Virus record (IMG/VR): IMGVR_UViG_3300033069_002010
Source: a virus
Taxonomy: Duplodnaviria > Heunggongvirae > Uroviricota > Caudoviricetes
Reading direction: 5' to 3' (one strand)
Length of the DNA stretch: 64,000 nt
The translations under genes were made by a program, and so were the position numbers. A model generated the notes under the pieces. The model was not told where the DNA came from. It saw only the letters and a program-made list of their open reading frames with translations, and ran no database searches. Below are positions 3,495-64,000 of the stretch, piece after piece (within the stretch, counting starts at the first letter, position 1; every line of letters starts with the position of its first letter).

Positions 3495-4640
3495 TTATTT
3501 GAATCCTATCTCGTCCTGCTGGGAAGAAAATTCCCTTTTCCTGATCACGTCAATAAGCTTGGTGGGACCCTTGATCTTCGACTTGCTCCCGACCGATTTG
3601 GCCAATTCGAGGGATTTCGTCTTGGAAAGACAGTCGACCTCTATGACATCAATAAGGTTGTTGCAGTCCAGGATTGTCTCATCAATCTCCGAAAGGTGAT
3701 CCACATTCAAAACCATTATTATGTTCAGGTTGAGTTCGTCGGACTGGTATCCGTCGATAAGCTGAAGGATGTTGTTTGTGAAAACGTTTGATTTGGTGTA
3801 GAACTGACTGAAGTAAAGTTCCGAATCGTCGATCACGACAACAGAGTTCTTGAATCTCTTCAGAAGATTCTTAAATTCAGGATTGTTGATGCTGATCTCA
3901 ATCATCGAACTCGGTATGTAGACAAAAGGCTTTTCAAGACATGACGCCATGTATCCGACGAGTCCGGTCTTTCCAGTTCCCCTTTGCCCGTAAATCAGAC
4001 TCAATCCCTTATTTGACTTTCTGATGTTTTTTATCAGTTTTTCAGTCCTCTTCAAAACGTTGTCGTTGAAATACATCTCGATATTCTCGAGATCCAATTT
4101 CATCGGAACCAGAGGCTCGACCTCAAACCCGTTTTGGGTGAATATCGTCGAGAACATCCGGGTTGAGTCACCCTCGTCGTCAAATCCCTCATGGAACTGT
4201 TCGAGATTGGAGATAATTTCGTTCAGTTTTTCGGCGGATCCGCTCTTATAGAAGAAAACAACATCCCCGATTACAGACTCGTCGACAAGCTTGTCGAAAT
4301 GGGTATATGAAAGATAAATCGATTCATCGATCTTAACAAGGACCTTTTCGTTTATCATAACATCGTCCTGAGCGGGAATGGCCTCCGTGAAAACCACACT
4401 GGTCTCGGAATCCCCAATGTATTTGATGAAACTATCAACGTTGTAATTGGCGTGAAGGACATATTTGTTGGGCCTCGATCCGAAGACGGACCAACAATGC
4501 AGATAATCGTTTATTTCGTTCTCATCCCGATTGATGTTTATATTCAAGGGGATTGAGGGTATTATGTTGTTTTTCATAAAAATTACATTTTGAATTTTAT
4601 ATATACCGTAATAATATTTGTTTCGACAATATGAACCCAA
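3495..4640 (-). CDS. P-loop NTPase (AAA-like ATPase)
   Basis: Walker A GQRGTGKTG and Walker B-like VVVIDDSE; 381 aa. Confidence 0.6.
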   Translation of the reverse strand: MGSYCRNKYYYGIYKIQNVIFMKNNIIPSIPLNININRDENEINDYLHCWSVFGSRPNKYVLHANYNVDSFIKYIGDSETSVVFTEAIPAQDDVMINEKVLVKIDESIYLSYTHFDKLVDESVIGDVVFFYKSGSAEKLNEIISNLEQFHEGFDDEGDSTRMFSTIFTQNGFEVEPLVPMKLDLENIEMYFNDNVLKRTEKLIKNIRKSNKGLSLIYGQRGTGKTGLVGYMASCLEKPFVYIPSSMIEISINNPEFKNLLKRFKNSVVVIDDSELYFSQFYTKSNVFTNNILQLIDGYQSDELNLNIIMVLNVDHLSEIDETILDCNNLIDVIEVDCLSKTKSLELAKSVGSKSKIKGPTKLIDVIRKREFSSQQDEIGFK

Positions 4641-8321: not shown

Positions 8322-9965
8322 ATGGATATTAAATATTTCGAAGAGGAAATTTATAAAAATAGACCCAACCGATTAAAAGAGGGATTTGTCAAAAATAATT
8401 TTCCTGAGTTCTATGAGTTCATAACTGATAAATTTATCGGAGACACTTTTTTAGAAAAATTATATATTTTCTATAAAGGTATCTCAAAATGTAAATGTGG
8501 GAACAAAAATAAATTCATATCATTCAAAACTGGGTTTAGAAAACACTGTAGTATTAAATGTTCTAGTAACGACGAGTCAACTAGAGATAGGTATAAAAAA
8601 TCATGTCTTTCAAAGTATGGGGTTGAAAATATCTCTAAAAACACAGAAATAAAAAAGAAAAAAGAAGAGACATGTATTAAAAATTATGGAGTAAAATCAT
8701 ATTTTCTCACACAGGAATTAAAAGACATCATATATGAAAAATATGGAACTGATAACGTATTCAAAAACGAGGAAATTAAGAAAAAAATATCAGATTCAAA
8801 TATTAAGAAATATGGAAATAAAGTATCTATACTAAACACACAAATAAAAGAAAAGTCCAAGAAAACACTAATCGATAAATATGGTGTTGACAGTTACTCA
8901 AAAACGGATAGTTTCAAGTTAATGATGAAAAATTATAATGATGAAAAATATAAACAATCACTCGATGATAGTGAATATGAAATTATTCACAGAAATAGAT
9001 ATATTAATACATTAAAGCATATAAAGTGTGGGGAAACATTTGATATACAAACACAACTGATAAGAAAAAGAAACAATTCTAAATCTGAAATTTGCTTAGT
9101 ATGTAATCCATTTCAACCATCATATAAGGAAAGTGAATTATTCACATGGATAAGTGAGATCCACCCAAATGTTATCCATCATTTCAGAATTAAAAAATAT
9201 GAAATAGATATATACCTACCCGATCTAAAAATTGGATTCGAGTATAACGGCCTATATTGGCACTCTGAACTGAATAAAGAAAAAAACTACCACCAGGAAA
9301 AAACAAAATATTTTAAAGAAAATGGTATACAAATATACCATATATGGGAGGATGACTGGAAATATAAACAAGACATAGTAAAATCAATTATACTCAATAA
9401 AATTAGTAAAACCCCCAATAGAATTGGGGCTAGGAAATGTAAGGTAGTTGAGGTTTCCGATAAAATATCAAAAGATTTTCTAAATAAAAACCACCTCCAA
9501 GGATTTTGTGTCTCAAAATACAGACTTGGACTAGTATACGAAGGCAATATAGTAAGTCTAATAACACTTGGTAAAAAAAGAAACGGCAAATCATCCAATA
9601 AAGAATTTGAGTTACTTAGATTTGTATCTCTGATTAATCACAACATAGTTGGTGGGTTTTCAAAATTGATAAGTCATTTTATAAAAAAATACAAACCTAA
9701 TAGAATTGTGACATATTCTGATACATCTATTTCAAATGGGGATTTATATACAAAGGCTGGATTCACATACATATATTCAACAAAACCAAACTATTGGTAT
9801 TTTCTAAAAGACAGAAGATTTAATAGATTTTCATTCAGAAAATCAAATCTTATAAAAGAAGGATTTGATATCAAAAAAACCGAGAAGGAGATAATGTTTG
9901 AACGAGGATACAATAGAATATATGACTGTGGGTCAAATTTTTATGAAATAAATCTTAATATATAA
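8322..9965 (+). CDS. modular homing endonuclease, KYGV-repeat family with Vsr-like PD-(D/E)xK nuclease module
   Basis: Repeated motif of about 33 aa ending ...KYGV(E/D)N/S...; then DIYLPDLKIGFEYNGLYWHSE...IYHIWEDDW (Vsr/DUF559-like); C-terminal ARKC...NHLQGF domain shared with 45018..46916. Strongly AT-rich codon usage compared with its neighbours. Confidence 0.7.
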   Translation: MDIKYFEEEIYKNRPNRLKEGFVKNNFPEFYEFITDKFIGDTFLEKLYIFYKGISKCKCGNKNKFISFKTGFRKHCSIKCSSNDESTRDRYKKSCLSKYGVENISKNTEIKKKKEETCIKNYGVKSYFLTQELKDIIYEKYGTDNVFKNEEIKKKISDSNIKKYGNKVSILNTQIKEKSKKTLIDKYGVDSYSKTDSFKLMMKNYNDEKYKQSLDDSEYEIIHRNRYINTLKHIKCGETFDIQTQLIRKRNNSKSEICLVCNPFQPSYKESELFTWISEIHPNVIHHFRIKKYEIDIYLPDLKIGFEYNGLYWHSELNKEKNYHQEKTKYFKENGIQIYHIWEDDWKYKQDIVKSIILNKISKTPNRIGARKCKVVEVSDKISKDFLNKNHLQGFCVSKYRLGLVYEGNIVSLITLGKKRNGKSSNKEFELLRFVSLINHNIVGGFSKLISHFIKKYKPNRIVTYSDTSISNGDLYTKAGFTYIYSTKPNYWYFLKDRRFNRFSFRKSNLIKEGFDIKKTEKEIMFERGYNRIYDCGSNFYEINLNI

Positions 9966-27881: not shown

Positions 27882-27910
27882 AAAATACCGGTTAGACCGG
27901 TATTTTTTTC
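27881..27910. terminator. bidirectional intrinsic terminator
   Basis: A5, stem TACCGGT/ACCGGTA, then T7, between convergent genes. Confidence 0.6.
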
Positions 27911-29367
27911 ATCATACTACCAATTCTATCCGAAACTTCGGTTTTTGGGAGTATAGACATCACGGTCATAAGATCTGGTCCCGGAACCCCACCCGTAAGG
28001 GCCATCCTCAAGTCAGGCATAACCTTTCCCATCTTGATCCCTAGATCCTGACAAATGTCATGGATTGACTGCTTGATAGAATCAACAGTCCAATCGATTC
28101 CATCAATATTCCCGAGAAAGACATCAAACACCCGAATGAAATCAGGATTTGTCTTATCCGAACTGACCCTGACTGGATTTACGAATATGTCAACCACCGA
28201 TTGGAGATCCGTCGTGAAAACACTTCTTTTCTTAGCAAGGTCAATAATCCTCGATTTGTCGGAGAGACTGAAATCGGTTCCTTTGAAATCGACGCGAGTC
28301 ATCAGGTAATCGTCAGACCTCAGGTTATTGAGATACCACGAGTTGAAATGTTTTGCCTTGTCCATATCGAACCTAGCTCCGTGCTTGTGGACACGATCAA
28401 GGGAGAACTGAGAGATCAGATCATCCATAGAAAATATTTCATTTGTTCCAATAGGAGACCAACCTATAAGACTCAGGTTGTTTATGAACACATCAGCGTC
28501 AAATCCATATTCCTTCCAACCATCAACCCATTTTCCATCGGAATCCACATACCCGATTGGAGAGATCGGAATACCGTATTTGGAGGCTGTCCTCTTGGAA
28601 AGCTTTCCCTTACCATCCGGGTTCATGATAAGGGGAAGATGACCGAAAGTCGGAATATCCCATCCGAAAGCCTTGTAGAGGAGGATATGGAAAGGTGTTG
28701 ACGCGACCCATTCCTGTCCTCTCAGGACATGGGTGACTCCCATATCATGATCGTCGGATGTGTTGGCCATGTGATAACTGGCAATACCGTCGGACTTCAG
28801 GAGAACCTTGTCATCCAACTGATTGGAGCTGATAGTGATATCCCCGAGTATAGCATCGGTGAACGTGATATCAACATCGGTAGGAACCGCGAAACGAACC
28901 ACAAACTTATCTCCACTAGCGAGACGGGAGTCAACATCATCTTTTGCAAGGGTAAAAGAATTTTTCATGCAGAGACGGGTGGCTGCATCATACTTGAAAT
29001 TGGGAACGGACTTGTGGGCCTTATCCAAATCATCCTTAGTATCAAACGCGTAATAAGCAAATCCTTTGTCGATAAGGAACTTGATCTTGTCCGAATAATT
29101 CCTTTCAGTCTGGATGAAGGAACCTATGGTAGGATCTGGGTTCCAATAGGAGGCATCAGGTTGGATTCCTAACCAATCACACATCCTTTTGAAATAATCA
29201 AGGAAATTTGGGTTGTAACGATCACGGTCGGTATCCTCGAGGCGAACCAAAAACCTACCACCCGTCTGTTTGGCAAGGAAATAGTTGTAGAGAAGGGTTC
29301 TAACATTTCCGAGATGAACAAACGGTCCAGTCGGTGACGGCGCTATCCTTGTTACTATTTTACGCAT
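27892..29367 (-). CDS. gltX: glutamyl-tRNA synthetase, bacterial type
   Basis: RIAPSPTGPFVHLGN (HIGH region), THVLRGQEW, GKLSKR (KMSKS); C-terminus GKVMPDLRMALTGGVPGPDL matches the bacterial GluRS tail. Start moved to the internal Met (MRKIVTRIAPSPTG) because the upstream 44 codons are hydrophobic and non-homologous. Confidence 0.9.
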   Translation of the reverse strand: MRKIVTRIAPSPTGPFVHLGNVRTLLYNYFLAKQTGGRFLVRLEDTDRDRYNPNFLDYFKRMCDWLGIQPDASYWNPDPTIGSFIQTERNYSDKIKFLIDKGFAYYAFDTKDDLDKAHKSVPNFKYDAATRLCMKNSFTLAKDDVDSRLASGDKFVVRFAVPTDVDITFTDAILGDITISSNQLDDKVLLKSDGIASYHMANTSDDHDMGVTHVLRGQEWVASTPFHILLYKAFGWDIPTFGHLPLIMNPDGKGKLSKRTASKYGIPISPIGYVDSDGKWVDGWKEYGFDADVFINNLSLIGWSPIGTNEIFSMDDLISQFSLDRVHKHGARFDMDKAKHFNSWYLNNLRSDDYLMTRVDFKGTDFSLSDKSRIIDLAKKRSVFTTDLQSVVDIFVNPVRVSSDKTNPDFIRVFDVFLGNIDGIDWTVDSIKQSIHDICQDLGIKMGKVMPDLRMALTGGVPGPDLMTVMSILPKTEVSDRIGSMMKKIPV

Positions 29368-29419
29368 ATGGGGAACGTTGGTTTTAATGTATAAGAATAC
29401 AAAAATAGTCAAAATTGAC

Positions 29420-30265
29420 ATGAAAACAAAATTTATATACGCCCTAAACGATCCCAACACCCATGAAGTGAAATATATCGGAAAAACAAATAACCTCAAA
29501 AAAAGACTACAGAGTCACCTGTCAAATAATCAGCTATCATCGGCAACAAGGAAAAACAATTGGATCATCTCTCTATTGAGGGATAATAAAATACCCATAA
29601 TCGAACTATTAGACGAAGTGCCTGAAAATGAAATAGACTTCTATGAGATATTCTACATATCATTATTCAGGTCATGGGGATTTAATCTATTAAATGGGAC
29701 AATTGGTGGAGATGGATTCGACTGGACAGGGAGAAAACACGATCCCATATCCAATTTAAAAAACAGAATAAACAGCCCCCATAGGAAATCGGTTGCCAAA
29801 TACGACATGAATGGAAATCTTCTCGATAAATATCATTCCTTGAGAGAGGCCGGTATAGAGAACAATATGGAAAAAGCCAACATATCCCGATGTTGTAGGA
29901 ACATACTTAAAACCTCAGGTGGTTTTAGATGGGAGTTCATAGAAAATATATCGGAACATGTATTCGAAACTCCAATCAATAGAGTTGAGAAAATTAAAAA
30001 ACCGAGACTCGATTCAAGACTGAAAAAAATTGATGTCTATAAGTTAGATGGGACGTTAATAGACACATGTGATAGTTTATCAAAAACTTCAGAAACACAC
30101 AATTGTCATTGGTCTCTAATAAAAAAATGCTGTGATAAAAAATCATTTCACCAGACAAAAAACCTAACATTCAGATTCATGGAGATGCTTTTGACTATAT
30201 CCCCCATAAAAATTATAGGAATGAAAAGACGTATAAAATTCAGATGTTCAAGGACGGAGACTTAG
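29420..30265 (+). CDS. GIY-YIG homing endonuclease with NUMOD1-like DNA-binding repeats; C-terminus frameshifted
   Basis: MKTKFIYALNDP...KYIGKT...R...H (GIY/YIG/Arg); two NUMOD1-like HTH units in frame; AAAATTGA lies immediately upstream. Confidence 0.75.
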   Translation: MKTKFIYALNDPNTHEVKYIGKTNNLKKRLQSHLSNNQLSSATRKNNWIISLLRDNKIPIIELLDEVPENEIDFYEIFYISLFRSWGFNLLNGTIGGDGFDWTGRKHDPISNLKNRINSPHRKSVAKYDMNGNLLDKYHSLREAGIENNMEKANISRCCRNILKTSGGFRWEFIENISEHVFETPINRVEKIKKPRLDSRLKKIDVYKLDGTLIDTCDSLSKTSETHNCHWSLIKKCCDKKSFHQTKNLTFRFMEMLLTISPIKIIGMKRRIKFRCSRTET

Positions 30266-40759: not shown

Positions 40760-41492
40760 CTTTGAATTTTTTATTTATTAAATAATTTGATAAAATCGGT
40801 TTTTTTTCAGTATCCTCCCATTTACAAGCAACCCTCAAATCATCACCAATAAGAGCCACTGTGATATATGTGTTCTCACCACACCTGAAAGTGGCGGTGG
40901 TTTCCTCAAGCTTGATCGGTTCAATCTCCTTTTCGGGATCACAGTCGAAGTTATCGATTTCCTTGATGAAATCAAAAGTTTCGGTTTTATAGTATTTTCC
41001 CTTCAAAAGTTTCAGAAACGGATCGGTGATTTTCAAAACCTCATTTTTCCTTACCCCATGAACATCCTTATACTTGAATCCTATGGTTATGTGCAGATCT
41101 ATCTCAGGAAGCCCATATCTCTTCCTAACCTCCTGGAGTTTTTCCGAACGGACCACCACAAAATATGCCCGGTTTCCAGACCTTTCCGCAGTTCCGATTC
41201 CCATCATCTGAACATCATCGAATTCGAAATCGAACACCGACTCAAGTGAGTTGACAAACCTATCAGGTCCCATCTCTTTCAAGATTCGGTTGTAATCCAT
41301 GACATTTATTACAGTTATATGATAATGCCCTTGATCCCTGTTTTGCTGATATTGGGTATATACGGTAAATTCCTCGTCACCAAGTATCCCCCTCATCTGT
41401 TCGAGATAAGGATGGATAGAGTCTTTCCAAATGTTTACTCCGACATAATTATTCCCAACTGTGTCCTTAATGTATTCTACTCTGTAAATCAT
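40752..41492 (-). CDS. 2H phosphoesterase (LigT / cyclic phosphodiesterase-like)
   Basis: Two H-x-T-x motifs (GHYHITV and DLHITIG) about 90 aa apart; ATGA overlap with the upstream CCA-adding enzyme gene. Confidence 0.55.
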   Translation of the reverse strand: MIYRVEYIKDTVGNNYVGVNIWKDSIHPYLEQMRGILGDEEFTVYTQYQQNRDQGHYHITVINVMDYNRILKEMGPDRFVNSLESVFDFEFDDVQMMGIGTAERSGNRAYFVVVRSEKLQEVRKRYGLPEIDLHITIGFKYKDVHGVRKNEVLKITDPFLKLLKGKYYKTETFDFIKEIDNFDCDPEKEIEPIKLEETTATFRCGENTYITVALIGDDLRVACKWEDTEKKPILSNYLINKKFKDV

Positions 41493-42697
41493 ACAATCAT
41501 TTTTTTGAATTCCTCAGTCTCAAGTCTCTTAATCTCCTCCCCAAGAGCCTTACCCCTAATTCCACTAGACATGAGGTCATCAGCCGAAACCGTTGGAACA
41601 TATTCGACAAACTTCCGAAACATCCTATCCCTAACAAGGTTACAGTCTAACCATTCAAGGATGACCGAATTGTCGATGTGACACTTTATTTTCCTCTTAT
41701 ACATCTCAAAAACGTTATCAGGAGTCAATCCCAAAAGAGATATCAGGAAAACCGACTTGTCAGCGACATCCCCTTCGATCTTGAATTCCTGGACCAGTTT
41801 CCTTTCCAAGATCTTCGGATCTTCCTTCCTGAAAAGGTTGGCTAATATGACCACCATATTTGACGAATCGATAAGATCTGTGTTTATCAGACATCCGGGA
41901 AAAACTACATCCCAGAGCCCCAAATCGGTGAAATACTGGAGATAACTATTGAAATCAAGAGTCTTCTTCTTGGTATACGAATGTGCCTTCTTGATCTCCT
42001 CCCAAATCCTTTCACGGGAAATGATATTCAGATCGTTCTTCCTGTCACGGATCGCGTCAAGTGATTTCGGATCCACACTGAAACTATATCTGAACGCAAA
42101 CCTGATGAGTCTCAGGATACGCAGAGGATCTTCCTTGATTCTGAGTTCGGGATCACCGAGAAAACGGGCGACACGGTTTTTTATGTCATCCATACCACCA
42201 ACCAAATCGACTATAGATTTGGTGTCCAAATCATAAAACAAAGCGTTGAAAGGTATGTCACGACGCTTAACGTCGTTTTCTATCGTGGTGAACCTCACAT
42301 CAGGATTCCTAGTCGTTCCAAGCACTGCCGAAACACCAGTCTTACCAGCTTCCGAGGCATATATATCCTCCCTGAAAGTGGCGATCTCCATACCCAAAGG
42401 CTGGTCATCGGTATATACTACAACTACCCCGAAAGCCTTACCCTGAAGGTTCGTCGAATATCCTTCAGATTTAAGGATCGAGACAACCTCATCGGGAACA
42501 GCGTCGGTGGCCAAATCAAAATCCTTAGGTTGGTCACCAATAAGGAAATCCCTGACCGAACCCCCAACCACAAAAAGTTTCTTTCCGTTTGATTGGAAAA
42601 TCCGATGGAGTTCCTTGACCGAATCGGGAATAAGATTCCACATATCAGAATCCCTTTGGTTTTCTAGAAATTTTTCGTAATTTACTAATACTTTCAT
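41489..42697 (-). CDS. cca: CCA tRNA nucleotidyltransferase
   Basis: LFVVGGSVRDFLIGDQPKDFDLATDAVPDEV head-domain signature. Start moved to the internal Met (MKVLVNYEKF); the first M at 42775 adds a hydrophobic 26-aa extension that overlaps the divergent gene. Confidence 0.85.
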   Translation of the reverse strand: MKVLVNYEKFLENQRDSDMWNLIPDSVKELHRIFQSNGKKLFVVGGSVRDFLIGDQPKDFDLATDAVPDEVVSILKSEGYSTNLQGKAFGVVVVYTDDQPLGMEIATFREDIYASEAGKTGVSAVLGTTRNPDVRFTTIENDVKRRDIPFNALFYDLDTKSIVDLVGGMDDIKNRVARFLGDPELRIKEDPLRILRLIRFAFRYSFSVDPKSLDAIRDRKNDLNIISRERIWEEIKKAHSYTKKKTLDFNSYLQYFTDLGLWDVVFPGCLINTDLIDSSNMVVILANLFRKEDPKILERKLVQEFKIEGDVADKSVFLISLLGLTPDNVFEMYKRKIKCHIDNSVILEWLDCNLVRDRMFRKFVEYVPTVSADDLMSSGIRGKALGEEIKRLETEEFKKMIV

Positions 42698-42720
42698 TGA
42701 AACAAAGTTAATCAAAATTT

Positions 42721-42736
42721 TTAATATATATATTAA
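42721..42736. promoter_or_regulatory. palindromic TTAATATATATATTAA element in a divergent promoter region
   Basis: Perfect 16-nt palindrome between divergent starts at 42697 (minus) and 42738 (plus). Confidence 0.4.
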
Positions 42737-42737
42737 T

Positions 42738-43235
42738 ATGAAAGACATTAAAAAGTTTGAGGCGTTTGGTGACATTTATCCCGAAACCAGGTTGGACTAC
42801 GACTGGAAAAGGGAATTTCTCGAAATACGGGAACTTTTCTACAACATCGAGGAAAATCTACCCGATGAGAGTTTGGTCGACTTTTCGGCTGGATGGAGGT
42901 CATCGATGAATAACCAAATGTTCCCATGTTACATAAATAAGGCGGGCGAGATTATGGGGAATGACGAAGTGATAGAAAAAACCTGCGGCACATACGCCAA
43001 CTTTCTCATAAGAATCACTATAGAACCGAGATTCAAAACCCGTAACTACTCCCCATTCAAAATCTCAAATTCCGAGTCCTTTTTCGGGGAAAACGCTCAA
43101 ATCGTGGTAGACATAATATCAAGACTCAAATACATAACAAAAGGACTGAACGAATACTCAATGGGGATAACATTCAAAGATAATCTCATCTATATATATT
43201 TTTTAAGAAACAACAACGAAAGAAAACAGATATGA
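42738..43235 (+). CDS. hypothetical protein (MKDIKKFEAF N-terminus)
   Basis: 165 aa. Confidence 0.45.
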   Translation: MKDIKKFEAFGDIYPETRLDYDWKREFLEIRELFYNIEENLPDESLVDFSAGWRSSMNNQMFPCYINKAGEIMGNDEVIEKTCGTYANFLIRITIEPRFKTRNYSPFKISNSESFFGENAQIVVDIISRLKYITKGLNEYSMGITFKDNLIYIYFLRNNNERKQI

Positions 43236-44450: not shown

Positions 44451-45023
44451 ATGAAACACCTGAAACTCTTCGAATCCAAGAACTGGGAAATAGTATTCGA
44501 CCCACACATCACAAGAATAGAATGGAACGGTCTGCCATCTTACCTACGCGACAAAACACTTATCGACTTCACACAGAGAGATATAAAACAAATAATCGGA
44601 TTTTTGGAGCATTTCGTCCCGATGTCAATGATTAAGATGCCCGAAAATACTGACAAAAAATTGGATTATGACCAAGGTAAATTTCGTGGTTCAATAGATG
44701 TGTCAACGGAAAGATCGAGCCGACCCAAAAACTATTATGACAATATCAATATATTGAAGTTAGATGATGAATACTTCATTGTATATTGCACCCACGGATA
44801 CCCAAGCGGACAACGAACCCAGGTATTCAAATGTGACCAAATCGAAGGACTGATCGAACTATTGGGGATGATGTTTGAGGGATATCCCAAAAAGGACTAT
44901 TCGAGCCAAAACTACATAACCAAAATAAAAAATCTAATCAATTCAATAGACATCGAAAAAACAGATCCAAAAAAACTGAAATCACTAGAGGAATTCCTAA
45001 TAAAATGGAAATCTGATTCATGA
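44451..45023 (+). CDS. hypothetical protein (MKHLKLFES N-terminus)
   Basis: 190 aa. Confidence 0.45.
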   Translation: MKHLKLFESKNWEIVFDPHITRIEWNGLPSYLRDKTLIDFTQRDIKQIIGFLEHFVPMSMIKMPENTDKKLDYDQGKFRGSIDVSTERSSRPKNYYDNINILKLDDEYFIVYCTHGYPSGQRTQVFKCDQIEGLIELLGMMFEGYPKKDYSSQNYITKIKNLINSIDIEKTDPKKLKSLEEFLIKWKSDS

Positions 45024-46916
45024 TAAAACCATTTCAAATTTTATCTTACCACAATCCCATATCTTATTGATTCTATTTTTCTCAACATATTTTGATTCAG
45101 TTAAGGTAGTCTTGAGTTTTGATTTTCTAAATCTTGACTTATGGACCCTCTTACCATCCACAACATACTTATAATCTGGATTTGAGAAATTAATAAGTTT
45201 AAAACCTATGGTTTCATATAATTTTCCATTAGACCAGTCCCTGTCAGCATAACTAACTATCCTAGTAGGCCCATAGTTTTTGATGAAATTTTTCAAAAGT
45301 CTAGATGCACCACCAATAACCGATGTATCTATCTTATTACAAAACCTGGACAAATTCCATTCCATATTATCCATTTTTTTCCTACCTTCGGAATGATCAA
45401 ATGTCATAATAGAAACAAGTTCCCCTCTATAGTACAATCCTATTTTAACCACAGAATTCACAAATCCTTGTATGTGATTCTCATCAAGAAAACACCGAAC
45501 TATTTTTGGATCATTTATAACCCTAACTTCACATTTTCTAGCATGAATCATGGTATTAGTAATACCAATCCAATTTCTGATTTGACTCTTAATAATATTT
45601 GTCCTATGCGACCAGTCGTCTTCCCATATATTTATAATATGAATTCCTTTGTCCAAAAAATATTTTCTTTTATTTAAGTGATAATTTCTATCTCTGTATT
45701 TTTCTGAATGCCAGTATAGTCCATTAAACTCAAATCCTATTTTCAAATCGGGAAGATAAATATCTATTTCCAACCCATCTCTATATGATCCAATAACCTC
45801 TCCTTGATATATTGATTTTATATAATTCAGCACTTGTTTTTCCTTTATTGAATATAACTCTCCGACGGGATTACAAATGACACATAAGGGCACTCTACCT
45901 CTTATCCTATTAAAATATAGATCAGTTGATATTTCAAAATTGTGTGGTTTATCTAAATCACATTTGAATAAAGAAACACTATTACCAACATAAGTAATAT
46001 ATGAATCGTGTTTAGTTATTGAAAATTTAATTCTTATTTCATCAGACTGGGAAACATGTTCAACATTATATTTATCAAGATTTGTTTTCCTTACTTTATC
46101 AAGTATAATAGGTGATTGTAATGGTGATTCTACACCATATTTTTCAATATTTGTCTTTTTTATCTGTTCTCTAATCTCGGGTGACTTAAAAACATTATCA
46201 TAGCCATACCTTTCTATATTTGTGTTTCTAATGATCTGCTTACAATCTTCACTTTTTAAGTTTGAGTCAACACCCCACTTTTCTATACTTGATTCTCTTC
46301 TTTTTTTCTGAAATTCTTCACTTTGTGAAACATATTCTACACCATATTTTTTTAAATTTGTCTCTTTGGACCTCCGAATAAAGTCATCTGTGCCAATATA
46401 ATACTCACTACCATATTTCAACATGTTAGTCTCAGTTACCTTAACCTTGAAATCATCGGTTTTCGCATAACTGTCTAATCCATATTTTTCCAAACAAGTA
46501 TTCCTTATTTTTGACTTGACTACATCACTATACATTTGATGTTCAACCCCATGATTCCTGATTAACGTTTGTTTGGACTTCTCTTTAACAGTATTTAATT
46601 GAAATGGATTATCCACACCATATTTGGATTGACATACATCCTTTATTTTCTGATTGGAACATTGATACCTACTACATGATGATTTATTTATATCTTTTAT
46701 AGATAAATTATATCGTTTATAAGGTTGTTTAAATTCCAATCCACAATAATCACATTTTACATCAACAACTATCTTGGATCCAATAGTGATATCTTTGATA
46801 TTAACTGTTATAATATCACCTATTTTTGGATTATCTAAATCATATTTATTTCTTAATTTAAGACAGTTCCTTTTAGTTAAGACTATTTCTACTTTTTCGG
46901 TTAATAGCATAAACAA
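45018..46916 (-). CDS. modular homing endonuclease, KYGV-repeat family with Vsr-like nuclease module
   Basis: Nine or more KYGV(D/E)xxxQ repeats, then LEIDIYLPDLKIGFEFNGLYWHSE...IWEDDW and ARKCEVRVI...NHIQGF, paralogous to 8322..9965. AT-rich. Confidence 0.7.
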   Translation of the reverse strand: MFMLLTEKVEIVLTKRNCLKLRNKYDLDNPKIGDIITVNIKDITIGSKIVVDVKCDYCGLEFKQPYKRYNLSIKDINKSSCSRYQCSNQKIKDVCQSKYGVDNPFQLNTVKEKSKQTLIRNHGVEHQMYSDVVKSKIRNTCLEKYGLDSYAKTDDFKVKVTETNMLKYGSEYYIGTDDFIRRSKETNLKKYGVEYVSQSEEFQKKRRESSIEKWGVDSNLKSEDCKQIIRNTNIERYGYDNVFKSPEIREQIKKTNIEKYGVESPLQSPIILDKVRKTNLDKYNVEHVSQSDEIRIKFSITKHDSYITYVGNSVSLFKCDLDKPHNFEISTDLYFNRIRGRVPLCVICNPVGELYSIKEKQVLNYIKSIYQGEVIGSYRDGLEIDIYLPDLKIGFEFNGLYWHSEKYRDRNYHLNKRKYFLDKGIHIINIWEDDWSHRTNIIKSQIRNWIGITNTMIHARKCEVRVINDPKIVRCFLDENHIQGFVNSVVKIGLYYRGELVSIMTFDHSEGRKKMDNMEWNLSRFCNKIDTSVIGGASRLLKNFIKNYGPTRIVSYADRDWSNGKLYETIGFKLINFSNPDYKYVVDGKRVHKSRFRKSKLKTTLTESKYVEKNRINKIWDCGKIKFEMVLS

Positions 46917-52507: not shown

Positions 52508-52528
52508 TTTATATATTAAATTTTATAT

Positions 52529-57587: not shown

Positions 57588-57990
57588 ATATATTATTTAT
57601 TTTGTAATCCCTAGACCATGTTTTATCTGTCATGGTAAAGGAAATTATGAATCTTGTCAGCCTTATTGATGACCCTGGTTGAAATGGATTTTCAACATCT
57701 ATTGTTTTTGGTTCGGAAACCGACCAGAAGCTGCCTCCCAAAAAGTCCGTTCTTATATTTTTTTTCTTTATCCTCAGATGGTTGGACAGTTTGGAATAGA
57801 ATTCAGTCTTGGGAATGAGAATATTAAAAATTTGATCTGTCTGATTCCAATTGTACCGGATTTTGATGTCGATCCAATCAAACGCATCGGAACACCCGTC
57901 ATGAAACATGGGTATACGGTACGAAACCATAATTTTCCGATGACTCAATTTTGTCACCGTCAGATCGTCAGATTCGAAAATTCTATCCAT
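57571..57990 (-). CDS. hypothetical protein
   Basis: The track ORF starts at 58080 and overlaps the rhomboid 3' end by 98 nt; the internal Met (MDRIFESDD, at 57990) is the more likely start. Confidence 0.35.
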   Translation of the reverse strand: MDRIFESDDLTVTKLSHRKIMVSYRIPMFHDGCSDAFDWIDIKIRYNWNQTDQIFNILIPKTEFYSKLSNHLRIKKKNIRTDFLGGSFWSVSEPKTIDVENPFQPGSSIRLTRFIISFTMTDKTWSRDYKINNIFDGNF

Positions 57991-58573
57991 TCCTGTTTCC
58001 AAAAACCTTTCTCTCAAGGAAATACGCCGACATTCCTGCCATTGCCCCACCAAAGTGGGCCCAGTGACCGATATTGTCATTTACTGCAAAGATACAGCAA
58101 ATAAATTCTATTATGAAAAGAAATCCAACAAGATATTTGGATTTTATCCCGAACGGAAGAAACATTATCGAAAGTTCGGCATTCGGATTCAAAAAAGCGA
58201 ACATCATCACGATTCCCCATACGGCTCCCGACGCCCCCACACACGGACCCTGTGTGAACAGGGACTGCAGTATGCCTCCGACCAGTCCGAAAAGAAGATA
58301 GTAGAAATAGAACTTCTTGGTGGAATTTATGAAACTCTCAACAAAAGGACCCAGGGATATCAGAGCCAACATGTTTCCCAAAAGGTGGAAAATGCCCCCA
58401 TGGACGAATTGCGAGGTTATCAGCTGATACCACCCGAAATTCGGGCTGGTGTAGTTCCAGCAGGCCAAAAACCAAGTCAGGTCGAGTTTAAATAAACTGA
58501 GAACGGACATGAATAGAAAAACTGAAACGTTGATGTAAAATAGGGTCTTGATGCCCGTTGATGATTGAAACAT
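57983..58573 (-). CDS. rhomboid-family intramembrane serine protease
   Basis: Six TM segments; catalytic GASGAVWG (GxSG) and the later TM His in AHFGGAMAG. Confidence 0.75.
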   Translation of the reverse strand: MFQSSTGIKTLFYINVSVFLFMSVLSLFKLDLTWFLACWNYTSPNFGWYQLITSQFVHGGIFHLLGNMLALISLGPFVESFINSTKKFYFYYLLFGLVGGILQSLFTQGPCVGASGAVWGIVMMFAFLNPNAELSIMFLPFGIKSKYLVGFLFIIEFICCIFAVNDNIGHWAHFGGAMAGMSAYFLERKVFGNRNG

Positions 58574-58987: not shown

Positions 58988-59278
58988 GTAATCCCGATAA
59001 TCCACCGAATCCGTGGGATACCCTGACAGGTAATCGCTGTAGTTCAGGCTCTGTTCCAATTTCGCGGACAGGTAGTCCGAAAATCTCCTCATCAGGATAT
59101 TTCTTCTTTCCTCCCTTATCAGGGCAAAAAGTTCCATCTCAGAGACTTGGTCTTTCCTCACTGCTATTGAACGGTATTTTTTCACCGACAATCGTTGTTT
59201 CAGTAACCCCCTTGTAGAATTTCGTCTTTCCACATCTCTTACAATTTTTCTTGAGAAGCTCGTCATAGCGACCCACAC
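58982..59278 (-). CDS. hypothetical protein
   Basis: 98 aa. Confidence 0.35.
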   Translation of the reverse strand: MWVAMTSFSRKIVRDVERRNSTRGLLKQRLSVKKYRSIAVRKDQVSEMELFALIREERRNILMRRFSDYLSAKLEQSLNYSDYLSGYPTDSVDYRDYE

Positions 59279-59338
59279 TCTTGACGTATTTCCATCTTGT
59301 CCATCTGTGACCCGTAAAAAGACAGATTATCCATTTCA

Positions 59339-60568
59339 TCATTTAATATTCTTTTTTAATTCGTTCAAATCGTCGAGATACATATCTTTCGGTTCTACCA
59401 AAGACAGGGCCTCCATATCGGATTTTTTTGTCCTGTAATCATCCTTCAGCTTTTCGAAGAGATCTTTGGTTAGAGACCAAATTGGCATCTTTAAAAGATA
59501 ATCAAAAGAATCGTCTATCTGTTCAAGACCGATTTTGACCATCTCATAAACTAGAATGTCTTTCTGTTTATTCTTGACCTCAATCTTCCCATCTAGAATG
59601 TATTTGATAAATCGGCCCTTATTGGCTAGAACTTTCAGTTCAGATCTCATTTTTTCTAGTAGGAAATCTTTACGTTTTATATAATATTTCAATCTGAAAG
59701 TTACGAAATATTCTATTATTTCAGAATCAGATTCAAAAATTTTTAGCTTTCCAGATTCGTCAAGGGTGGAGAAATTTTCGGTCTCTGACTCCTCAAGCTT
59801 CAGAATCTTGATAAGTTTTTCTTCTGTCAAATTTGACAGTGATTCCCTAGTGAATTTTATCGTATAGTCTATATTGTCTCTACAGTTGTCGTCGTATCCG
59901 ACTATGACCTTGTCCTCCAAAAGCTTATCAAGTATAGTCTCATACTTCTCATAAGTCATTGATGGTGGAAGTTCAGTTACCCTTACCGTTGAGGTGTTCG
60001 CCACCTGTACCTTTCCCTGGATAATCCACCTCTTAGGATTCTCGGGATCTCTTATATAATCACCGTTGAAAAAACGGTTATAAGGCTTTATGTCCCCGAT
60101 TTTATTCCCGTTGATTACCTGCTGGCATGCCGTGATTATGTCAGATGGGTTCCGGTTTAGAATGTTGGAAGCGAAACCGACCGCGATGCCAGACGATCCA
60201 TTTATCAGGATCATCGGTATGATAGGAAGAAAGAAATGGGGTTCAATTTCCTGTCCCTCCTCCTGCTTATAGGTTAGAAGATCGAAATCCTTGTAGAGAA
60301 GACGAAAATTTTTGTTGAGTTTGGTCCCGATATACCTGGCCGCTCCGGGCTCAGGGGACCGGAGGGATCCGAACTGACCGACCTCATCCAAAAGACTCAT
60401 GTTGTTCTTGAAGCTTTGGGCCATGGTGACAATCGCGTTTTCCAAAGAACTGTTATGGGTAACTATCATGGAGTCTCCAACAACGAAATTATGGTATTTA
60501 TCAACCGTAATATCATAAAATTTCCTTGGTTTATCCAATTTGTTTACCCTTATTGATTTTATTCTCAT
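59339..60568 (-). CDS. topoisomerase II large subunit (gp52/GyrA-like), C-terminal fragment preceded by a C-intein
   Basis: The first 39 aa (MRIKSIRVNKLDKPRKFYDITVDKYHNFVVGDSMIVTHN) carry intein blocks F and G. The extein resumes SSLENAIVTMAQSF...LLDEVGQFGS...GAARYIGTKL, i.e. the type IIA active-site Tyr region. Confidence 0.85.
   Translation of the reverse strand: MRIKSIRVNKLDKPRKFYDITVDKYHNFVVGDSMIVTHNSSLENAIVTMAQSFKNNMSLLDEVGQFGSLRSPEPGAARYIGTKLNKNFRLLYKDFDLLTYKQEEGQEIEPHFFLPIIPMILINGSSGIAVGFASNILNRNPSDIITACQQVINGNKIGDIKPYNRFFNGDYIRDPENPKRWIIQGKVQVANTSTVRVTELPPSMTYEKYETILDKLLEDKVIVGYDDNCRDNIDYTIKFTRESLSNLTEEKLIKILKLEESETENFSTLDESGKLKIFESDSEIIEYFVTFRLKYYIKRKDFLLEKMRSELKVLANKGRFIKYILDGKIEVKNKQKDILVYEMVKIGLEQIDDSFDYLLKMPIWSLTKDLFEKLKDDYRTKKSDMEALSLVEPKDMYLDDLNELKKNIK
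60452..60568 (-). mobile_element. split intein, C-terminal half (Int-C, 39 aa)
   Basis: Blocks F (FYDITVDKYHNFVV) and G (IVTHN|S). It begins with its own Met in a separate ORF. Confidence 0.75.
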
Positions 60569-61478
60569 ATTTTTTAAGTATAAATTTTTTACAAGATTCT
60601 ATATTATTCCTAACATCTTCATCACTCCAAATTTCCAATATTTCAAACCCATTTGAAATGGCTAAGTTATTCTTAATTCTCCGTCTGTTGATATTCTCTG
60701 AAGCAGTTTCATTCACAAAGGGATTCGACCATACATCATTTTCATTTTTTGCATGAAATGCAACCCCATGAAACTCAATTATTATTTTAAGGGATTTTAT
60801 AGTGAAATCATAGAAAAATATATTTGTTCCACCTTTTAGGAAAAATTCATTTTTGTCTTGATATCCAAAAAATATATCATCTGACAATAGACCAATATGA
60901 ATGCAAAAATTAAAAACATCTAGAAAAACAACCAGTGACTCCTTAGATGCTTTACCAAAAAGGTGAAGACGAGGATCATATCCCAAGTTATTCATAAAAA
61001 TATTATGTATTTCCCACCATTTTTTTTTGAAAAAAAGAGGATCAATGACCATTTTATACCTCATCTTATCCACTTTAGATATTTTAATGGTTTCTGATTT
61101 CGATATATGATCAACACCATATTTCAACATAAGAGTCTTTTTTGATTTTTCCTTAACGGACTCTCTCTGAAAAACATTTATTATTCCCTCATTTTCAATA
61201 AGTCTATCCTCCCATTTTTTTCTAGAAGATGATTCCCCACAAAAATTATGTGTCGAACCACATGATTTAAGATATGATCTCATCTTCAACTCTTCAGCAC
61301 ATTCGGAAGAACAGGTTTGATTTTGTCTGTGATAAAACTCCAAACCACAGTTTTTACATTTTTTATATTTTCTACAATCCGTACAGAAATTACCATATTT
61401 TTCTGGATCTTTCAGTATATATTTCTTACTTATTGAATCTATATTGAAACTCGATCCACATCTTTTACATATACACAT
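60531..61478 (-). CDS. free-standing Vsr-like homing endonuclease lying between the split-intein halves
   Basis: CxxC...CxxC N-terminus; one KYGVDHISKSE repeat; FFYDFTIKSLKIIIEFHGVAFHA...ILEIWSDEDV (Vsr/DUF559-like). Its frame differs from both intein halves; own TATATATA element upstream; AT-rich. Confidence 0.7.
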   Translation of the reverse strand: MCICKRCGSSFNIDSISKKYILKDPEKYGNFCTDCRKYKKCKNCGLEFYHRQNQTCSSECAEELKMRSYLKSCGSTHNFCGESSSRKKWEDRLIENEGIINVFQRESVKEKSKKTLMLKYGVDHISKSETIKISKVDKMRYKMVIDPLFFKKKWWEIHNIFMNNLGYDPRLHLFGKASKESLVVFLDVFNFCIHIGLLSDDIFFGYQDKNEFFLKGGTNIFFYDFTIKSLKIIIEFHGVAFHAKNENDVWSNPFVNETASENINRRRIKNNLAISNGFEILEIWSDEDVRNNIESCKKFILKKYENKINKGKQIG

Positions 61479-61513
61479 TATTTATTTTTATGGTATATAT
61501 AAAATGACCAAAA

Positions 61514-62062
61514 TCACTTTTTATCATCATGGGATAAAATATCCATGATGATATCATCCTCTTTTAGGTTTTCAGCGGTTACCCATCCCCTTTCCGTTAG
61601 GAAAGGGTGATTTGAAGTGCATTTGAATATTTCGCCATTTTCCATTTCAATCTCGAACTCTATGTCAGTGATTTGACCTACCCTTGGAGTATGGCCCTTT
61701 CCAGCGACAAATTGTTTAGTTTCCTCATCAAATGAGATCAAATCCAACTCAATATCTGGAAAATTTTCAAACCATTCAATAATTTTAATAGACGACCCAT
61801 CTATTAATGAGATTTTTGTTTCGGGATCCAAACAGTTTCCGTGGTGGTAGAAAGCGTCCGAAGCCACCTTACCGGCCAACTGGAAAACCTTGAGAGGCTT
61901 CTCGGAACCGTTTTTCCAAATGTCGGAACAGATGTGTATTATTTTTCTCTGTGTCGGCTTGAACCCGTCGATGACCGACGGAATCGCCCTTCCCTCGACC
62001 ACATACATGGCGAAATCCTTGTACTCCGTCGACAGGAATTCGGTTATTGTTTTCTTGTTCAT
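61514..62062 (-). CDS. topoisomerase II large subunit (gp52/GyrA-like), N-terminal fragment fused to an N-intein
   Basis: DGFKPTQRKII...LKVFQLAGKVASDAFYHHG(N) is the conserved type IIA N-terminal region, up to the YHHGE motif. Confidence 0.85.
   Translation of the reverse strand: MNKKTITEFLSTEYKDFAMYVVEGRAIPSVIDGFKPTQRKIIHICSDIWKNGSEKPLKVFQLAGKVASDAFYHHGNCLDPETKISLIDGSSIKIIEWFENFPDIELDLISFDEETKQFVAGKGHTPRVGQITDIEFEIEMENGEIFKCTSNHPFLTERGWVTAENLKEDDIIMDILSHDDKK
61517..61834 (-). mobile_element. split intein, N-terminal half (Int-N, 105 aa)
   Basis: Begins with Cys immediately after YHHGN; block A CLDPETKISLIDGSSIKIIE; block B KCTSNHPFLTERGWVTAENLKEDDII; terminated by TGA at 61514-61516. Confidence 0.75.
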
Positions 62063-62155
62063 GATTTTTATAGTTACTATGTTTCCTTTGTTTTCTATTT
62101 ATATTAGTTTCCTGGTTCCCCTACGAAGAACCGATTCTGAATATATACGGGAATC

Positions 62156-62428: not shown

Positions 62429-62429
62429 T

Positions 62430-64000
62430 ATGAAGAAAATTGAGGAAAAATACAAGGTATTGGACCACATATCCCACGTCCTGCTGAGACCGGGAACATA
62501 TGTCGGGTCCAACAAGCCCCACACCGGAACAAAATGGATCTTCGATTCCGAATCCAAAAGGATGAAGAAGAGGGAAATAACCTACATACCTTCGTTTCTG
62601 AAGATATTCGACGAGATTGTCACCAACTCGTTCGACGAACACAAACGAACCCCGTCACTCAACAAGATAGACGTCGGGGTAAATCCGGAAACCGGAGAGA
62701 TATCGGTAAGGGACAACGGGGGAATACCGGTGGTCATACACAAGGAACACAACCAATACGTTCCCGAGGTGATATTCGGGAACCTCATGTCGGGGGCCAA
62801 CTACGACGACTCCGAGGAAAGGATAGTCGCGGGGACCAACGGATTGGGAGCCAAGCTTACCATAATATTCTCCAAGCAGTTCCAGATATCCACCTGCGAC
62901 GGAAAGACAAGCTTCCACCAGACCTATTCCAACAACATGAGGGACAGGACCCAACCGGTCATCAAGAAGCAGAAGACCAACCACACCGAAATAAGATACG
63001 TTCCCGATTTCGAGAAATTCGAAATGACCGGACTGGACGACGACCACTTCCAGATGATACGGAAAAGGGTGATCGATCTGGCTGGGTGCAACCCGACCTG
63101 CAGGGTCACGTTCAACGGAGATCCGATCGACGTAAAATCATTCGAGGATTATGTCAGACTGTATCGGGAAGACTATTTCTTCGAATCCAACAAGGAAAGG
63201 ACCTGGTCCCTGGCTGTGGCCCCGTCGGACGAAGGATTCCAGCAGGTCAGTTTCGTCAACTCCACCGACACGTATGACGGCGGAACCCATGTCGACTACA
63301 TACTCAACCAAATCATTTCGGAACTACGGGATTTCTTCCAAAAGAAACACAAGACCGACATCAGGCCTTCCGAAATAAAAAACCACATAACTCTGTTTCT
63401 TAACTCGACTGTGGTCAACCCTTCCTTCTCATCACAGACAAAGGAAAAGCTGATAACCGAGACAAAGGACTACGGTTACAAGTACGAGGTGACCGACAAG
63501 ATGATCAAGTCGATACTGAAATCGGAAATAGTCGAGTCGATACTAGATTGGATACAGCAGAAGAAAAGCGCCGACGAGAACAAGCTGGCCAGGGAACTCA
63601 ACAAGAACGCCGGAAAACTGAAGGTCGACAAGCTGATCGACGCCAAGGGAAAGGAAAGGTGGAAATGCTCGCTCGCCATTTTTGAGGGAGATTGTTTACA
63701 TGAAGACACACTTGTAAGAGTCATTCGGGATGGGGATGTAATAGATACAAAAATAAAAAACATAACAACCGAAGATCTAGTCATTACTCATAGTAATTCA
63801 ATATCCAATGTTTATGCTATAACAAAAAAAATAAAGAAAAAAGCAGTTATAAAAATTAAGGATGAGGAAATAACATGTAGCCATGAACATAAATGGTTCG
63901 TTTATGACAGGGAAAAAAATGAATTCTATTTCGAAACAACAAAAAATATAAATAAATCGAAACATAAATTAGTTAAGAACTATTTAGCATTTATGGATTC
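62430..64000 (+). CDS. topoisomerase II ATPase/TOPRIM subunit (gp39/gp60, GyrB-like), partial, interrupted by an intein
   Basis: GHKL ATPase motifs (FDEIVTNSFDE, RDNGGIPV, GTNGLGAKLT), the QTKEKL motif and TOPRIM EGD, followed at 63693 by CLHEDTLVRVIRDG (intein block A) where SA is expected. The ORF runs off the window end. The ORF track missed this gene because it has no stop inside the window. Confidence 0.85.
   Translation, partial: MKKIEEKYKVLDHISHVLLRPGTYVGSNKPHTGTKWIFDSESKRMKKREITYIPSFLKIFDEIVTNSFDEHKRTPSLNKIDVGVNPETGEISVRDNGGIPVVIHKEHNQYVPEVIFGNLMSGANYDDSEERIVAGTNGLGAKLTIIFSKQFQISTCDGKTSFHQTYSNNMRDRTQPVIKKQKTNHTEIRYVPDFEKFEMTGLDDDHFQMIRKRVIDLAGCNPTCRVTFNGDPIDVKSFEDYVRLYREDYFFESNKERTWSLAVAPSDEGFQQVSFVNSTDTYDGGTHVDYILNQIISELRDFFQKKHKTDIRPSEIKNHITLFLNSTVVNPSFSSQTKEKLITETKDYGYKYEVTDKMIKSILKSEIVESILDWIQQKKSADENKLARELNKNAGKLKVDKLIDAKGKERWKCSLAIFEGDCLHEDTLVRVIRDGDVIDTKIKNITTEDLVITHSNSISNVYAITKKIKKKAVIKIKDEEITCSHEHKWFVYDREKNEFYFETTKNINKSKHKLVKNYLAFMD
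63693..64000 (+). mobile_element. intein inserted at the TOPRIM EGD|SA site (partial)
   Basis: Block A CLHEDTLV...; a later TCSHEHKWFV is block-B-like. Markedly more AT-rich than the flanking extein. Confidence 0.65.

Follow-up and report, generated by a model that had tools for sequence, protein, structure and literature searches.

A probable fractured gene for a gp52-like topoisomerase II subunit in a Caudoviricetes phage, with split-intein halves on either side of a Vsr-like endonuclease gene

How can a single topoisomerase subunit be produced from a gene that is broken by a stop codon and by a complete gene for another protein? This question is raised by positions 59,339 to 62,062 of a 64,000-nucleotide stretch of Caudoviricetes DNA (IMG/VR record IMGVR_UViG_3300033069_002010; the whole stretch is termed the window throughout), where the two parts of a type IIA topoisomerase gene occupy separate open reading frames (ORFs) on the minus strand. 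A first inspection made without database searches (the sequence-only reading) had attributed this to a naturally split intein, with a Vsr-like homing endonuclease gene between its N-terminal (Int-N) and C-terminal (Int-C) halves. Following up this proposal computationally, we consider it highly probable that the locus is a fractured gene, in which a split mini-intein and an EDxHD/Vsr-like homing endonuclease gene reside within a gene for a gp52-like subunit; trans-splicing and homing are both predicted, with high confidence, from its anatomy, conservation and distribution. According to this model, a mini-intein would have occupied the gp52-like (GyrA-type) subunit between the equivalents of GyrA Asp82 and Ser83, and a free-standing EDxHD/Vsr-like endonuclease gene would have broken it at the canonical endonuclease-insertion point. 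Three proteins would then be made, i.e. a 182-amino-acid (aa) N fragment ending in an acidic Int-N, the endonuclease, and a 409-aa C fragment beginning with a basic Int-C. The N and C fragments would associate via their intein halves and undergo protein trans-splicing, by way of an N-S acyl shift at Cys1, attack by the +1 Ser, cyclisation of the terminal Asn and an O-N shift, so that the exteins would form a gp52-like protein of 446 aa whose junction, ...YHHGN-SSLENAIV..., is the native one. The endonuclease would for its part be a selfish passenger that cuts intein-less alleles of co-infecting phages, with repair copying the whole Int-N/endonuclease/Int-C cassette into the cut allele.

Translation of the region reproduced the two-ORF minus-strand layout, its coordinates and frames, and the intervening TGA (Table 1). 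The N ORF reads MNKK...DAFYHHGN, then CLDPETKISLIDG...KCTSNHPFLTERGW...HDDKK, followed by the TGA, and the C ORF reads MRIKSIRVNKLDKPRKFYDITVDKYHNFVVGDSMIVTHN, then SSLENAIVTMAQSF..., continuing through the catalytic AARY. As such, the extein and Int-C boundaries described earlier (76 aa ending in YHHGN; 39 aa ending in HN and followed by Ser) were seen directly in the translations, and only two lengths required amendment: Int-N, which does carry blocks A and B, has 106 aa and not 105, and the exteins joined in silico, which do match gp52, give 446 aa and not ~447 (the predicted stretch across the junction being ...VASDAFYHHGNSSLENAIVTMAQSFK). The endonuclease gene is complete and lies between the halves in another frame (start coordinate mod 3 of 2, as against 1 for both topoisomerase ORFs), and its 38-nt overlap with the Int-C ORF likewise holds. 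An alternative genetic code, in which TGA specifies Trp, was considered and rejected, as the N ORF would gain just 12 codons before a TAA and the ORFs would not be fused.

In order to establish the identity of the host gene, both ORFs were compared with domain profiles and with gp52. The Pfam DNA_topoisoIV profile is matched at positions 1-50 by the N ORF and at positions 38-429 by the C ORF. For PHROG 551 (DNA topoisomerase II) the corresponding positions are 7-81 and then 80-453, which implies a seamless junction and thus a host protein without a missing or duplicated part. Aligned to gp52, the two ORFs are colinear over its full length: residues 2-443 of the spliced product align with residues 4-443 of T-even phage gp52 (PDB 8ylu and 8yo3; E 3e-69). 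Because this product matches 'DNA topoisomerase medium subunit' from end to end we describe the host as gp52-like; the earlier label of large subunit was mistaken, as gp52 is the medium subunit of T4 topoisomerase II in PDB naming. The E. coli GyrA sequence used for comparison has a numbering that reproduces Ser83, Asp87 and Tyr122. On this basis, the catalytic Tyr is Tyr116 of the spliced product, with AARY aligning to the AMRY of GyrA Tyr122. In the same alignment Asp82 is the counterpart of Asn76 and Ser83 that of the +1 Ser, which places the intein at the start of helix alpha4 in the DNA gate and 40 residues upstream of the catalytic Tyr. GyrA Ser83 is the quinolone-resistance position at the DNA gate.

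Both intein halves were recognized by curated models. TIGR01445 (intein_Nterm, NCBIfam) scored 39.1 bits over residues 77-156 of the N ORF (curated cut-off 24.5) and TIGR01443 (intein_Cterm, NCBIfam) scored 37.5 bits over residues 17-40 of the C ORF (curated cut-off 15.6), so that profile alignment bears out the intein blocks A, B, F and G previously picked out by eye. The Pfam Intein_splicing scores of 27.6 and 27.7 fall below the gathering score of 35.8, as is to be expected because each query is half a domain. Block A opens with Cys1 (Cys77) straight after YHHGN, block B has TSNH at residues 149-152, and block F (FYDITVD, with its Asp/His), block G (IVTHN) and the +1 Ser are all present. 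When joined, the halves match many solved inteins by sequence, among them the naturally split NrdJ-1 (8ubs; E 1.5e-6), with an alignment that crosses the break, and, weakly, gp41-1 (6qaz); the NF038098 (GyrA_w_intein) model matched the extein segments only. The break sits between blocks B and F, which is the canonical position for endonuclease insertion, with Int-N ending ~30 residues past block B, and in one related locus (L051) a contiguous mini-intein bridges the break point with a short linker. The sizes of the halves resemble those of natural split inteins, as had been proposed, the NrdJ-1 halves being ~105 aa (Int-N) and ~40 aa (Int-C). Furthermore, the net charges are -15 for Int-N and +4 for Int-C, and an acidic Int-N with a basic Int-C is the polarity known for DnaE-type split inteins.

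A quite different explanation would be that the layout is an assembly or sequencing artefact, in which case the TGA and the change of frame would be errors, and the endonuclease would be an in-frame domain of a single contiguous intein. Indels do occur in metagenomic assemblies, and the 3' end of the endonuclease gene in the window differs from that of its relatives by 1 nt. However, an independent Logan assembly (L063) differs from the window by 2 substitutions and 0 gaps over 12,487 nt (99.98 % identical), and readthrough of the Int-N TGA is blocked by a TAA 12 codons further on. Moreover, in each of seven diverged loci Int-N runs into a stop (TGA, TAG or TAA) and a spacer of 35-48 nt follows, with separate ATGs for the endonuclease and Int-C, and at least 120 protein clusters (5.8 billion clusters searched) represent N fragments that terminate at this same point, with lengths of 175-193 aa. 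An artefact is thus so improbable that we regard it as already effectively refuted, and the TGA and frame difference as genuine.

The fractured layout proved to be widespread. Three IMG/VR loci (L001-L003) have the same three ORFs at 55-80 % protein identity, and in contigs reached via three endonuclease homologues the N fragment is 180-188 aa, the endonuclease 305-309 aa and the C fragment 410-416 aa. The layout recurs in L053-L062 (contigs of up to 537 kb), eight contigs other than the window show it at the DNA level, and it is present, unannotated, in the published 462-kb huge-phage genome LR756500.1. Within the 120 N-fragment clusters, Cys1, GHxPRxG and KCTxNHPFxTxRGW are at least 90 % conserved, and one cluster has been named 'Intein N-terminal splicing region [uncultured Caudovirales phage]' by NCBI. 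The intein is missing from all of the ~1,160 cultured T4-like phages that the phage collection contains. Other arrangements of the same site also exist. One locus (L004) has intact intein halves and topoisomerase parts that have not decayed, together with an endonuclease shortened by truncation and a frameshift; L051, mentioned above, encodes a single 589-aa ORF with its contiguous mini-intein (~144 aa) at the same site; and ~45 related loci are intein-less, the N-extein and C-extein being adjacent in one frame exactly at N↓S (arrow, insertion point; the intein-less junction in L008 or L020 reads GCATC..TATCATCATGG.AAC↓TC.AG).

Two side observations concern N fragments of other kinds. The same Int-N was seen behind far longer N-exteins in P0261 (802 aa), P0248 (423 aa) and P0257 (355 aa), the first of which bears the JGI name 'DNA topoisomerase-2' and has its site at residue 700; this suggests fused GyrB-GyrA-type topoisomerase II genes as a further host of the split intein. 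Additionally, PHROG 16259 ('DNA helicase') matches residues 14-173 of the N ORF with the last 150 of its 330 profile positions, and probably represents helicase N fragments ending in a split Int-N, as in gp41-type fractured genes.

To gain more insight into whether the parts of the locus are maintained, we used the Nei-Gojobori method to estimate ratios of non-synonymous to synonymous differences (pN/pS), which were 0.11-0.43 for Int-N, 0.08-0.27 for Int-C, 0.16-0.54 for the endonuclease, and 0.03-0.47 for exteins and intein halves taken together; as most pairs are saturated (pS >0.75), it is the direction of these ratios that is informative, and quantitative weight attaches only to the closest, least saturated pair (L003-L057), for which dN/dS is ~0.1 in every part. 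Int-N, Int-C, the endonuclease and the exteins are all under purifying selection. This bears on the possibility that the endonuclease insertion has inactivated the subunit, leaving a dead gene in a phage that relies on the gyrase or topoisomerase IV of its host. Insertions of homing endonucleases can inactivate genes, and L004 demonstrates that decay of the cassette occurs; in that locus, however, decay is confined to the endonuclease, sparing the topoisomerase and intein parts. As the exteins and intein halves are constrained, the topoisomerase motifs, including the catalytic RY, have all been preserved, and the partner gp39-like gene is likewise maintained, a dead gene appears very unlikely.

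Somewhat less remote, although still improbable, is non-covalent assembly without splicing, whereby the intein halves would serve as an affinity handle and the fragments would work as separate chains. The T4 gp39/gp60 pair is an example of a phage enzyme made of separate chains. Phage enzymes split by an endonuclease can also work as non-covalent complexes, as with Aeh1 NrdA, the gene for which is split by mobE (PMC3045599; discussed in PMC2677866). Against this, Cys1, TxxH, block F, the HN pair and the +1 Ser have been kept over deep divergence, and a 145-residue HINT domain at helix alpha4, 40 residues before the Tyr, would probably obstruct DNA binding. The +1 residue itself is Ser in every intein-bearing allele, and T, A, Q, S, M or K in intein-less alleles; this fixation of Ser only in company with the intein is the pattern to be expected if a splicing nucleophile is required.

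A further alternative is repair at the level of RNA or translation, by means of a group I/II intron, ribosomal bypass or a frameshift that removes the endonuclease segment and yields one precursor chain. T4 gene 60 does use translational bypass, and EDxHD endonucleases also occur in group I introns (PMC3239194). Nevertheless, an Rfam scan of positions 59000-64000, with E values up to 1, returned no intron or other RNA family, just 35 nt are non-coding, which is too short for an intron core, and the endonuclease ORF overlaps the Int-C ORF. The type of stop after Int-N moreover varies among loci, with no conserved recoding signal visible. We therefore give such repair practically no credence, and a split intein spliced in trans remains the explanation that we favour.

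With regard to mobility, the GC content at third codon positions (GC3) in the window is 0.70 for the N-extein and 0.47 for the C-extein, compared with 0.35 for Int-N, 0.23 for the endonuclease and 0.33 for Int-C. The nearest C-extein relatives of the window (L008 and L020; 71 % identity) are intein-less, and the intein-bearing loci are 64-68 % identical to it. Both the GC3 contrast and the intein-less nearest relatives indicate that the Int-N/endonuclease/Int-C cassette is horizontally mobile.

The endonuclease itself was classified by structure prediction. Searches of PDB sequences, with the single sequence and with a 40-sequence profile, gave nothing relevant and no match to 3r3p, and Pfam returned weak DUF559 and weak DUF7487 matches. 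An AlphaFold2 (AF2) model built from 40 homologues had a pLDDT of 89.8 and its C-terminal domain superposes on three structures; the family was placed by this fold search only, with the I-Bth0305I/Vsr fold. In 103 homologues YD (223-224), E235 and FH (241-242), which include D224 and H242, are at least 90 % conserved. By predicted fold and the conserved D224, E235 and H242, the protein is a probable EDxHD/Vsr-like homing endonuclease, in keeping with the initial Vsr-like designation; on the model it is Vsr-like in fold only, and not a member of the Vsr mismatch-repair family model. Endonucleases of this type were predicted by Dassa et al. 2009 (PMC2677866) and characterised by Taylor et al. 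(PMC3239194), the prototype being I-Bth0305I (PDB 3r3p; PMC3239194), which sits in a group I intron and has NUMOD/HTH repeats, in contrast with the Cys-rich and DUF7487 N-terminus found here. The sequence-only reading also held that a KYGV/Vsr-like family recurs in the window. This holds only in part: what recurs is the DUF7487 module, which elsewhere is joined to a Mom-like domain in one ORF and to a REase_MTES_1575 nuclease domain in another (Table 1), and it appears to be a portable DNA-binding unit.

Upstream of the endonuclease gene, the AT-rich motif of the spacer is conserved as TTTTATATATAC(C)AT in L001-3, L057 and L061. Allowing at most one mismatch, TTATATATAC occurs 19 times in the window versus 4.9 expected, and nine of the 19 matches lie 3-19 nt upstream of ORF starts, compared with 3.3 % of random positions that fall within 30 nt. 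The motif, a T-run followed by TATATATAC/G, precedes at least nine ORF starts in the window and is probably a promoter or initiation-region motif of this phage group; because of this enrichment upstream of ORF starts, the endonuclease gene would seem to carry the phage's own gene-start element. To call the gene independently promoted, as was done originally, overstates the case, as only this conserved AT-rich motif, and no convincing sigma-70 promoter, was found upstream of it. A sigma-70/terminator scan returned ~2 times the shuffled count of promoter-like sequences; none was convincing ahead of the endonuclease or Int-C, and Int-N was not followed by a terminator. In all loci the motif can pair with AUGUGUAUA in the endonuclease start region, and the resulting AUG-sequestering hairpin in the 5' untranslated region is weak (-6.8 to -7.6 kcal/mol) and, although recurrent in shape, was not better than shuffled sequences (z -0.7 to -1.3). 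At the other end of the gene, six of seven loci have the 4-nt overlap ATGA between the endonuclease stop and the Int-C start, and overlap at this point is also described for fractured genes (PMC2677866). The window carries a 1-nt deletion relative to these six relatives (within 60531..60568), which shifts the endonuclease frame and extends it by 12 codons, hence the 38-nt overlap seen here.

Some of these results count against a functional, trans-splicing and homing locus as we have described it. Loss of the ATGA coupling in the window might reduce translation of the C fragment. The single-sequence AF2 model of the joined intein halves had a pLDDT of 33, and the HINT fold rests on sequence profiles. 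Similarly, the endonuclease scored 17.3 bits with TIGR00632 (Vsr, NCBIfam), below the cut-off of 97.85, and its N-terminal part, with a Cys-rich region and DUF7487 helices, is not of the NUMOD/HTH type of I-Bth0305I. Lastly, the target of the endonuclease may be either the empty allele or the mini-intein allele.

The partner subunit bears two more split inteins. A gp39/GyrB-like gene diverges from the gp52-like gene and reaches the end of the window within its first Int-N (Table 1). Its continuation in the independent assembly (L063 709..3663 (-)) comprises ORFs A (583 aa), B (209 aa) and C (177 aa), with intervals of 24 and 15 nt. ORF A consists of the N-extein and Int-N1; ORF B of Int-C1 (...LISHN↓SASSAF), a 73-aa Toprim segment (...LYTDAD↓) and Int-N2 (CLEENT...); and ORF C of Int-C2 (...ILSHN↓CDGNAI) and TOPRIM_C. 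Both split sites, EGD↓SA and DAD↓CDG, fall within the Toprim domain and lack an intervening endonuclease, and the pieces cover the gyrB profile seamlessly (37-424, 422-about 496 and 496-595). With the gp52-like subunit in two ORFs and the gp39-like subunit in three, five ORFs encode the enzyme, and the halves of its three split inteins are 27-38 % identical to each other, with Int-N/Int-C charges of -15/+4, +2/-10 and 0/-5. Most loci have intein-less alleles at the gp39-like sites. On balance, and by a modest margin of confidence, we favour the view that topoisomerase II in this phage would be built from five ORFs by three coexisting, non-cross-reacting split inteins, that the gp39-like subunit would be a natural case of tandem three-piece trans-splicing, and that related phages keep all stages (empty, mini-intein, endonuclease-bearing, decayed and lost) at each site. 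No description of a natural multi-piece trans-spliced enzyme was found in the literature searched, which took in few of the subscription journals, so that this is weak evidence.

Related loci also showed cargo at the gp39-like sites. Between Int-N1 and Int-C1, at EGD↓SA, one locus (L028 175..1479 (-)) encodes a 434-aa Vsr-like endonuclease with a nuclease domain 53 % identical to that of the window and a differing N-terminal part, and at the same site another (L047 about 3729..3908 (-)) retains an endonuclease remnant of ~66 aa. These two loci suggest domain swapping that retargets the nuclease, and then decay. Between Int-N2 and Int-C2 a third locus (L064 4643..6043 (+)) has a 466-aa Eco57I/N6-adenine methyltransferase ORF (Pfam Eco57I 6e-24; N6_Mtase 2.6e-18), an unusual cargo for a fractured gene.

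With respect to known systems, the sequence-only reading had supposed that a type IIA topoisomerase was undescribed as a split-intein host. In agreement with this, we found no report of one in the literature searched, which as stated is weak evidence; the architecture, however, has been known since 2009 (PMC2677866), contiguous inteins exist at the exact site in bacterial GyrA, and public data already contain many copies of the split form that have drawn no comment. The hosts named in the text of Dassa et al. 2009 (PMC2677866) are IMPDH, DnaE, NrdA, NrdJ, DNA ligase and terminase, with gp41 loci in the figures, and the words 'topoisomerase' and 'gyrase' occur zero times. Its fractured genes, which include gp41-1, gp41-8, NrdJ-1, IMPDH-1 and NrdA-2, resemble the present one in their phage setting and in having an extein and Int-N ORF, a Vsr-like (or GIY-YIG) endonuclease ORF in its own frame, and an Int-C and extein ORF. 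Further likenesses are an endonuclease 3' end that overlaps the Int-C ORF and the existence of endonuclease-free variants (gp41-7); the AT-rich motif ahead of the endonuclease gene may correspond to the AT-rich motif or hairpin, with its late-promoter-like sequence, that those genes have there (PMC2677866). Unlike in those systems, the host here is a topoisomerase, at least 120 clusters exist, there are contiguous mini-intein and decayed-endonuclease alleles, and the partner subunit bears two more split inteins. The novelty thus lies in the host, in how large the family is, in the completeness of the evolutionary series and in one enzyme being split three times, and not in the architecture, which was already known.

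Amongst solved split inteins, NrdJ-1 (8ubs) is the best match and is also of class 1, with Cys1, an HN end and a +1 Ser; it differs in its low identity, ribonucleotide reductase host and other insertion site. The cyanobacterial DnaE split intein is similarly of class 1, with an acidic Int-N and basic Int-C, and its trans-splicing restores an essential replication protein, but its halves are encoded far apart without an endonuclease (PMC2677866), whereas here they are 0.95 kb apart with an endonuclease present. Contiguous inteins of bacterial GyrA/ParC at YHPHGD↓x share the insertion point and have a homologous intein N-terminus (CL..T....DG), but they splice in cis, in long cellular-type proteins and without a free-standing endonuclease. 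In a 1.84-billion-protein library, at least 47 of the best 150 representatives at 50 % identity are long and GyrA/ParC-type, with ...KYHPHGD↓CL..T... and a contiguous intein. These include P0277, P0285 and others (cellular-type GyrA/ParC with a contiguous intein at YHPHGD↓C), and an example is Peptoniphilus porci GyrA (WP_075660497.1), of 888 aa with its contiguous intein, compared with 724 aa for intein-less mates in the P0299 cluster. A literature search for GyrA insertion-site nomenclature returned no specific name for this site. Inteins of mycobacterial GyrA (such as Mxe GyrA) also reside in the A subunit of a type IIA topoisomerase. They are contiguous and lie directly after the catalytic Tyr (AMRY↓C...), whereas the site in the window is 40 residues upstream of it.

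As for the phage itself, the nearest DNA matches of the window in phage databases are uncultured phages of 460-640 kb. Together with window genes for a class I Glu/Gln-tRNA synthetase, a CCA-adding or poly(A) polymerase-family enzyme and a rhomboid protease homologue (Table 1), these matches point to a huge phage.

Table 1. Positions in the 64,000-nt window of the gp52-like locus, the partner gene and the other features discussed
Feature	Coordinates	Strand	Details
N fragment ORF	61514..62062	-	182 aa; N-extein 76 aa + Int-N 106 aa; TGA stop 61514-61516
N-extein, gp52-like topoisomerase II medium subunit	61835..62062	-	aa 1-76; YHHGN end
Int-N + TGA	61514..61834	-	residues 77-182, 106 aa (CLDPE...HDDKK)
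Spacer	61479..61513	-	35 nt; conserved AT-rich motif TTTTATATATACCAT; core 61493..61502
Free-standing homing endonuclease gene (predicted)	60531..61478	-	315 aa; Cys-rich N-terminus, DUF7487 helical region, C-terminal Vsr-like (EDxHD-type) nuclease domain
C fragment ORF	59339..60568	-	409 aa; Int-C residues 1-39, then C-extein
Int-C	60452..60568	-	39 aa (MRIKS...IVTHN); block F FYDITVD, block G HN
C-extein	59339..60451	-	370 aa + stop; begins at +1 Ser (SSLENAIV); catalytic Tyr in AARY
gp39/GyrB-like subunit	62430..64000	+	divergent; N-extein 62430..63692, 421 aa, AIFEGD end
Int-N1 of gp39-like gene	from 63693	+	first 102 aa (CLHEDT...) in window, rest beyond end
ORF with DUF7487 module	45018..46916	-	joined to Mom-like domain
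ORF with DUF7487 module	8322..9965	+	joined to REase_MTES_1575 nuclease domain
Start-proximal motif copies	895-904(-), 8296-8305(+), 10975-10984(+), 13597-13606(+), 27386-27395(+), 30968-30977(-), 46933-46942(-), 52523-52532(-), 61493-61502(-)		
Class I Glu/Gln-tRNA synthetase	27892..29499	-	
CCA-adding or poly(A) polymerase-family enzyme	41489..42775	-	
Rhomboid protease homologue	57983..58573	-	

Taken as a fractured gene that would be restored by trans-splicing, this locus introduces natural split inteins of the type IIA topoisomerase of phages, a host that is absent from the published list, and their family is large, diverse and evidently functional. The three split inteins resident together are presumably orthogonal and differ in charge polarity, and sets of this kind are sought for multi-fragment protein ligation. 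For annotators of huge phages, it follows that 'truncated' topoisomerase ORFs may be parts of a trans-spliced protein. Furthermore, the related loci form an unusually complete series of intermediates for the model of Dassa et al. for the origin of split inteins and for the invasion, decay and loss of endonucleases, and it is because this series is so complete that the model becomes testable by comparative and experimental work.

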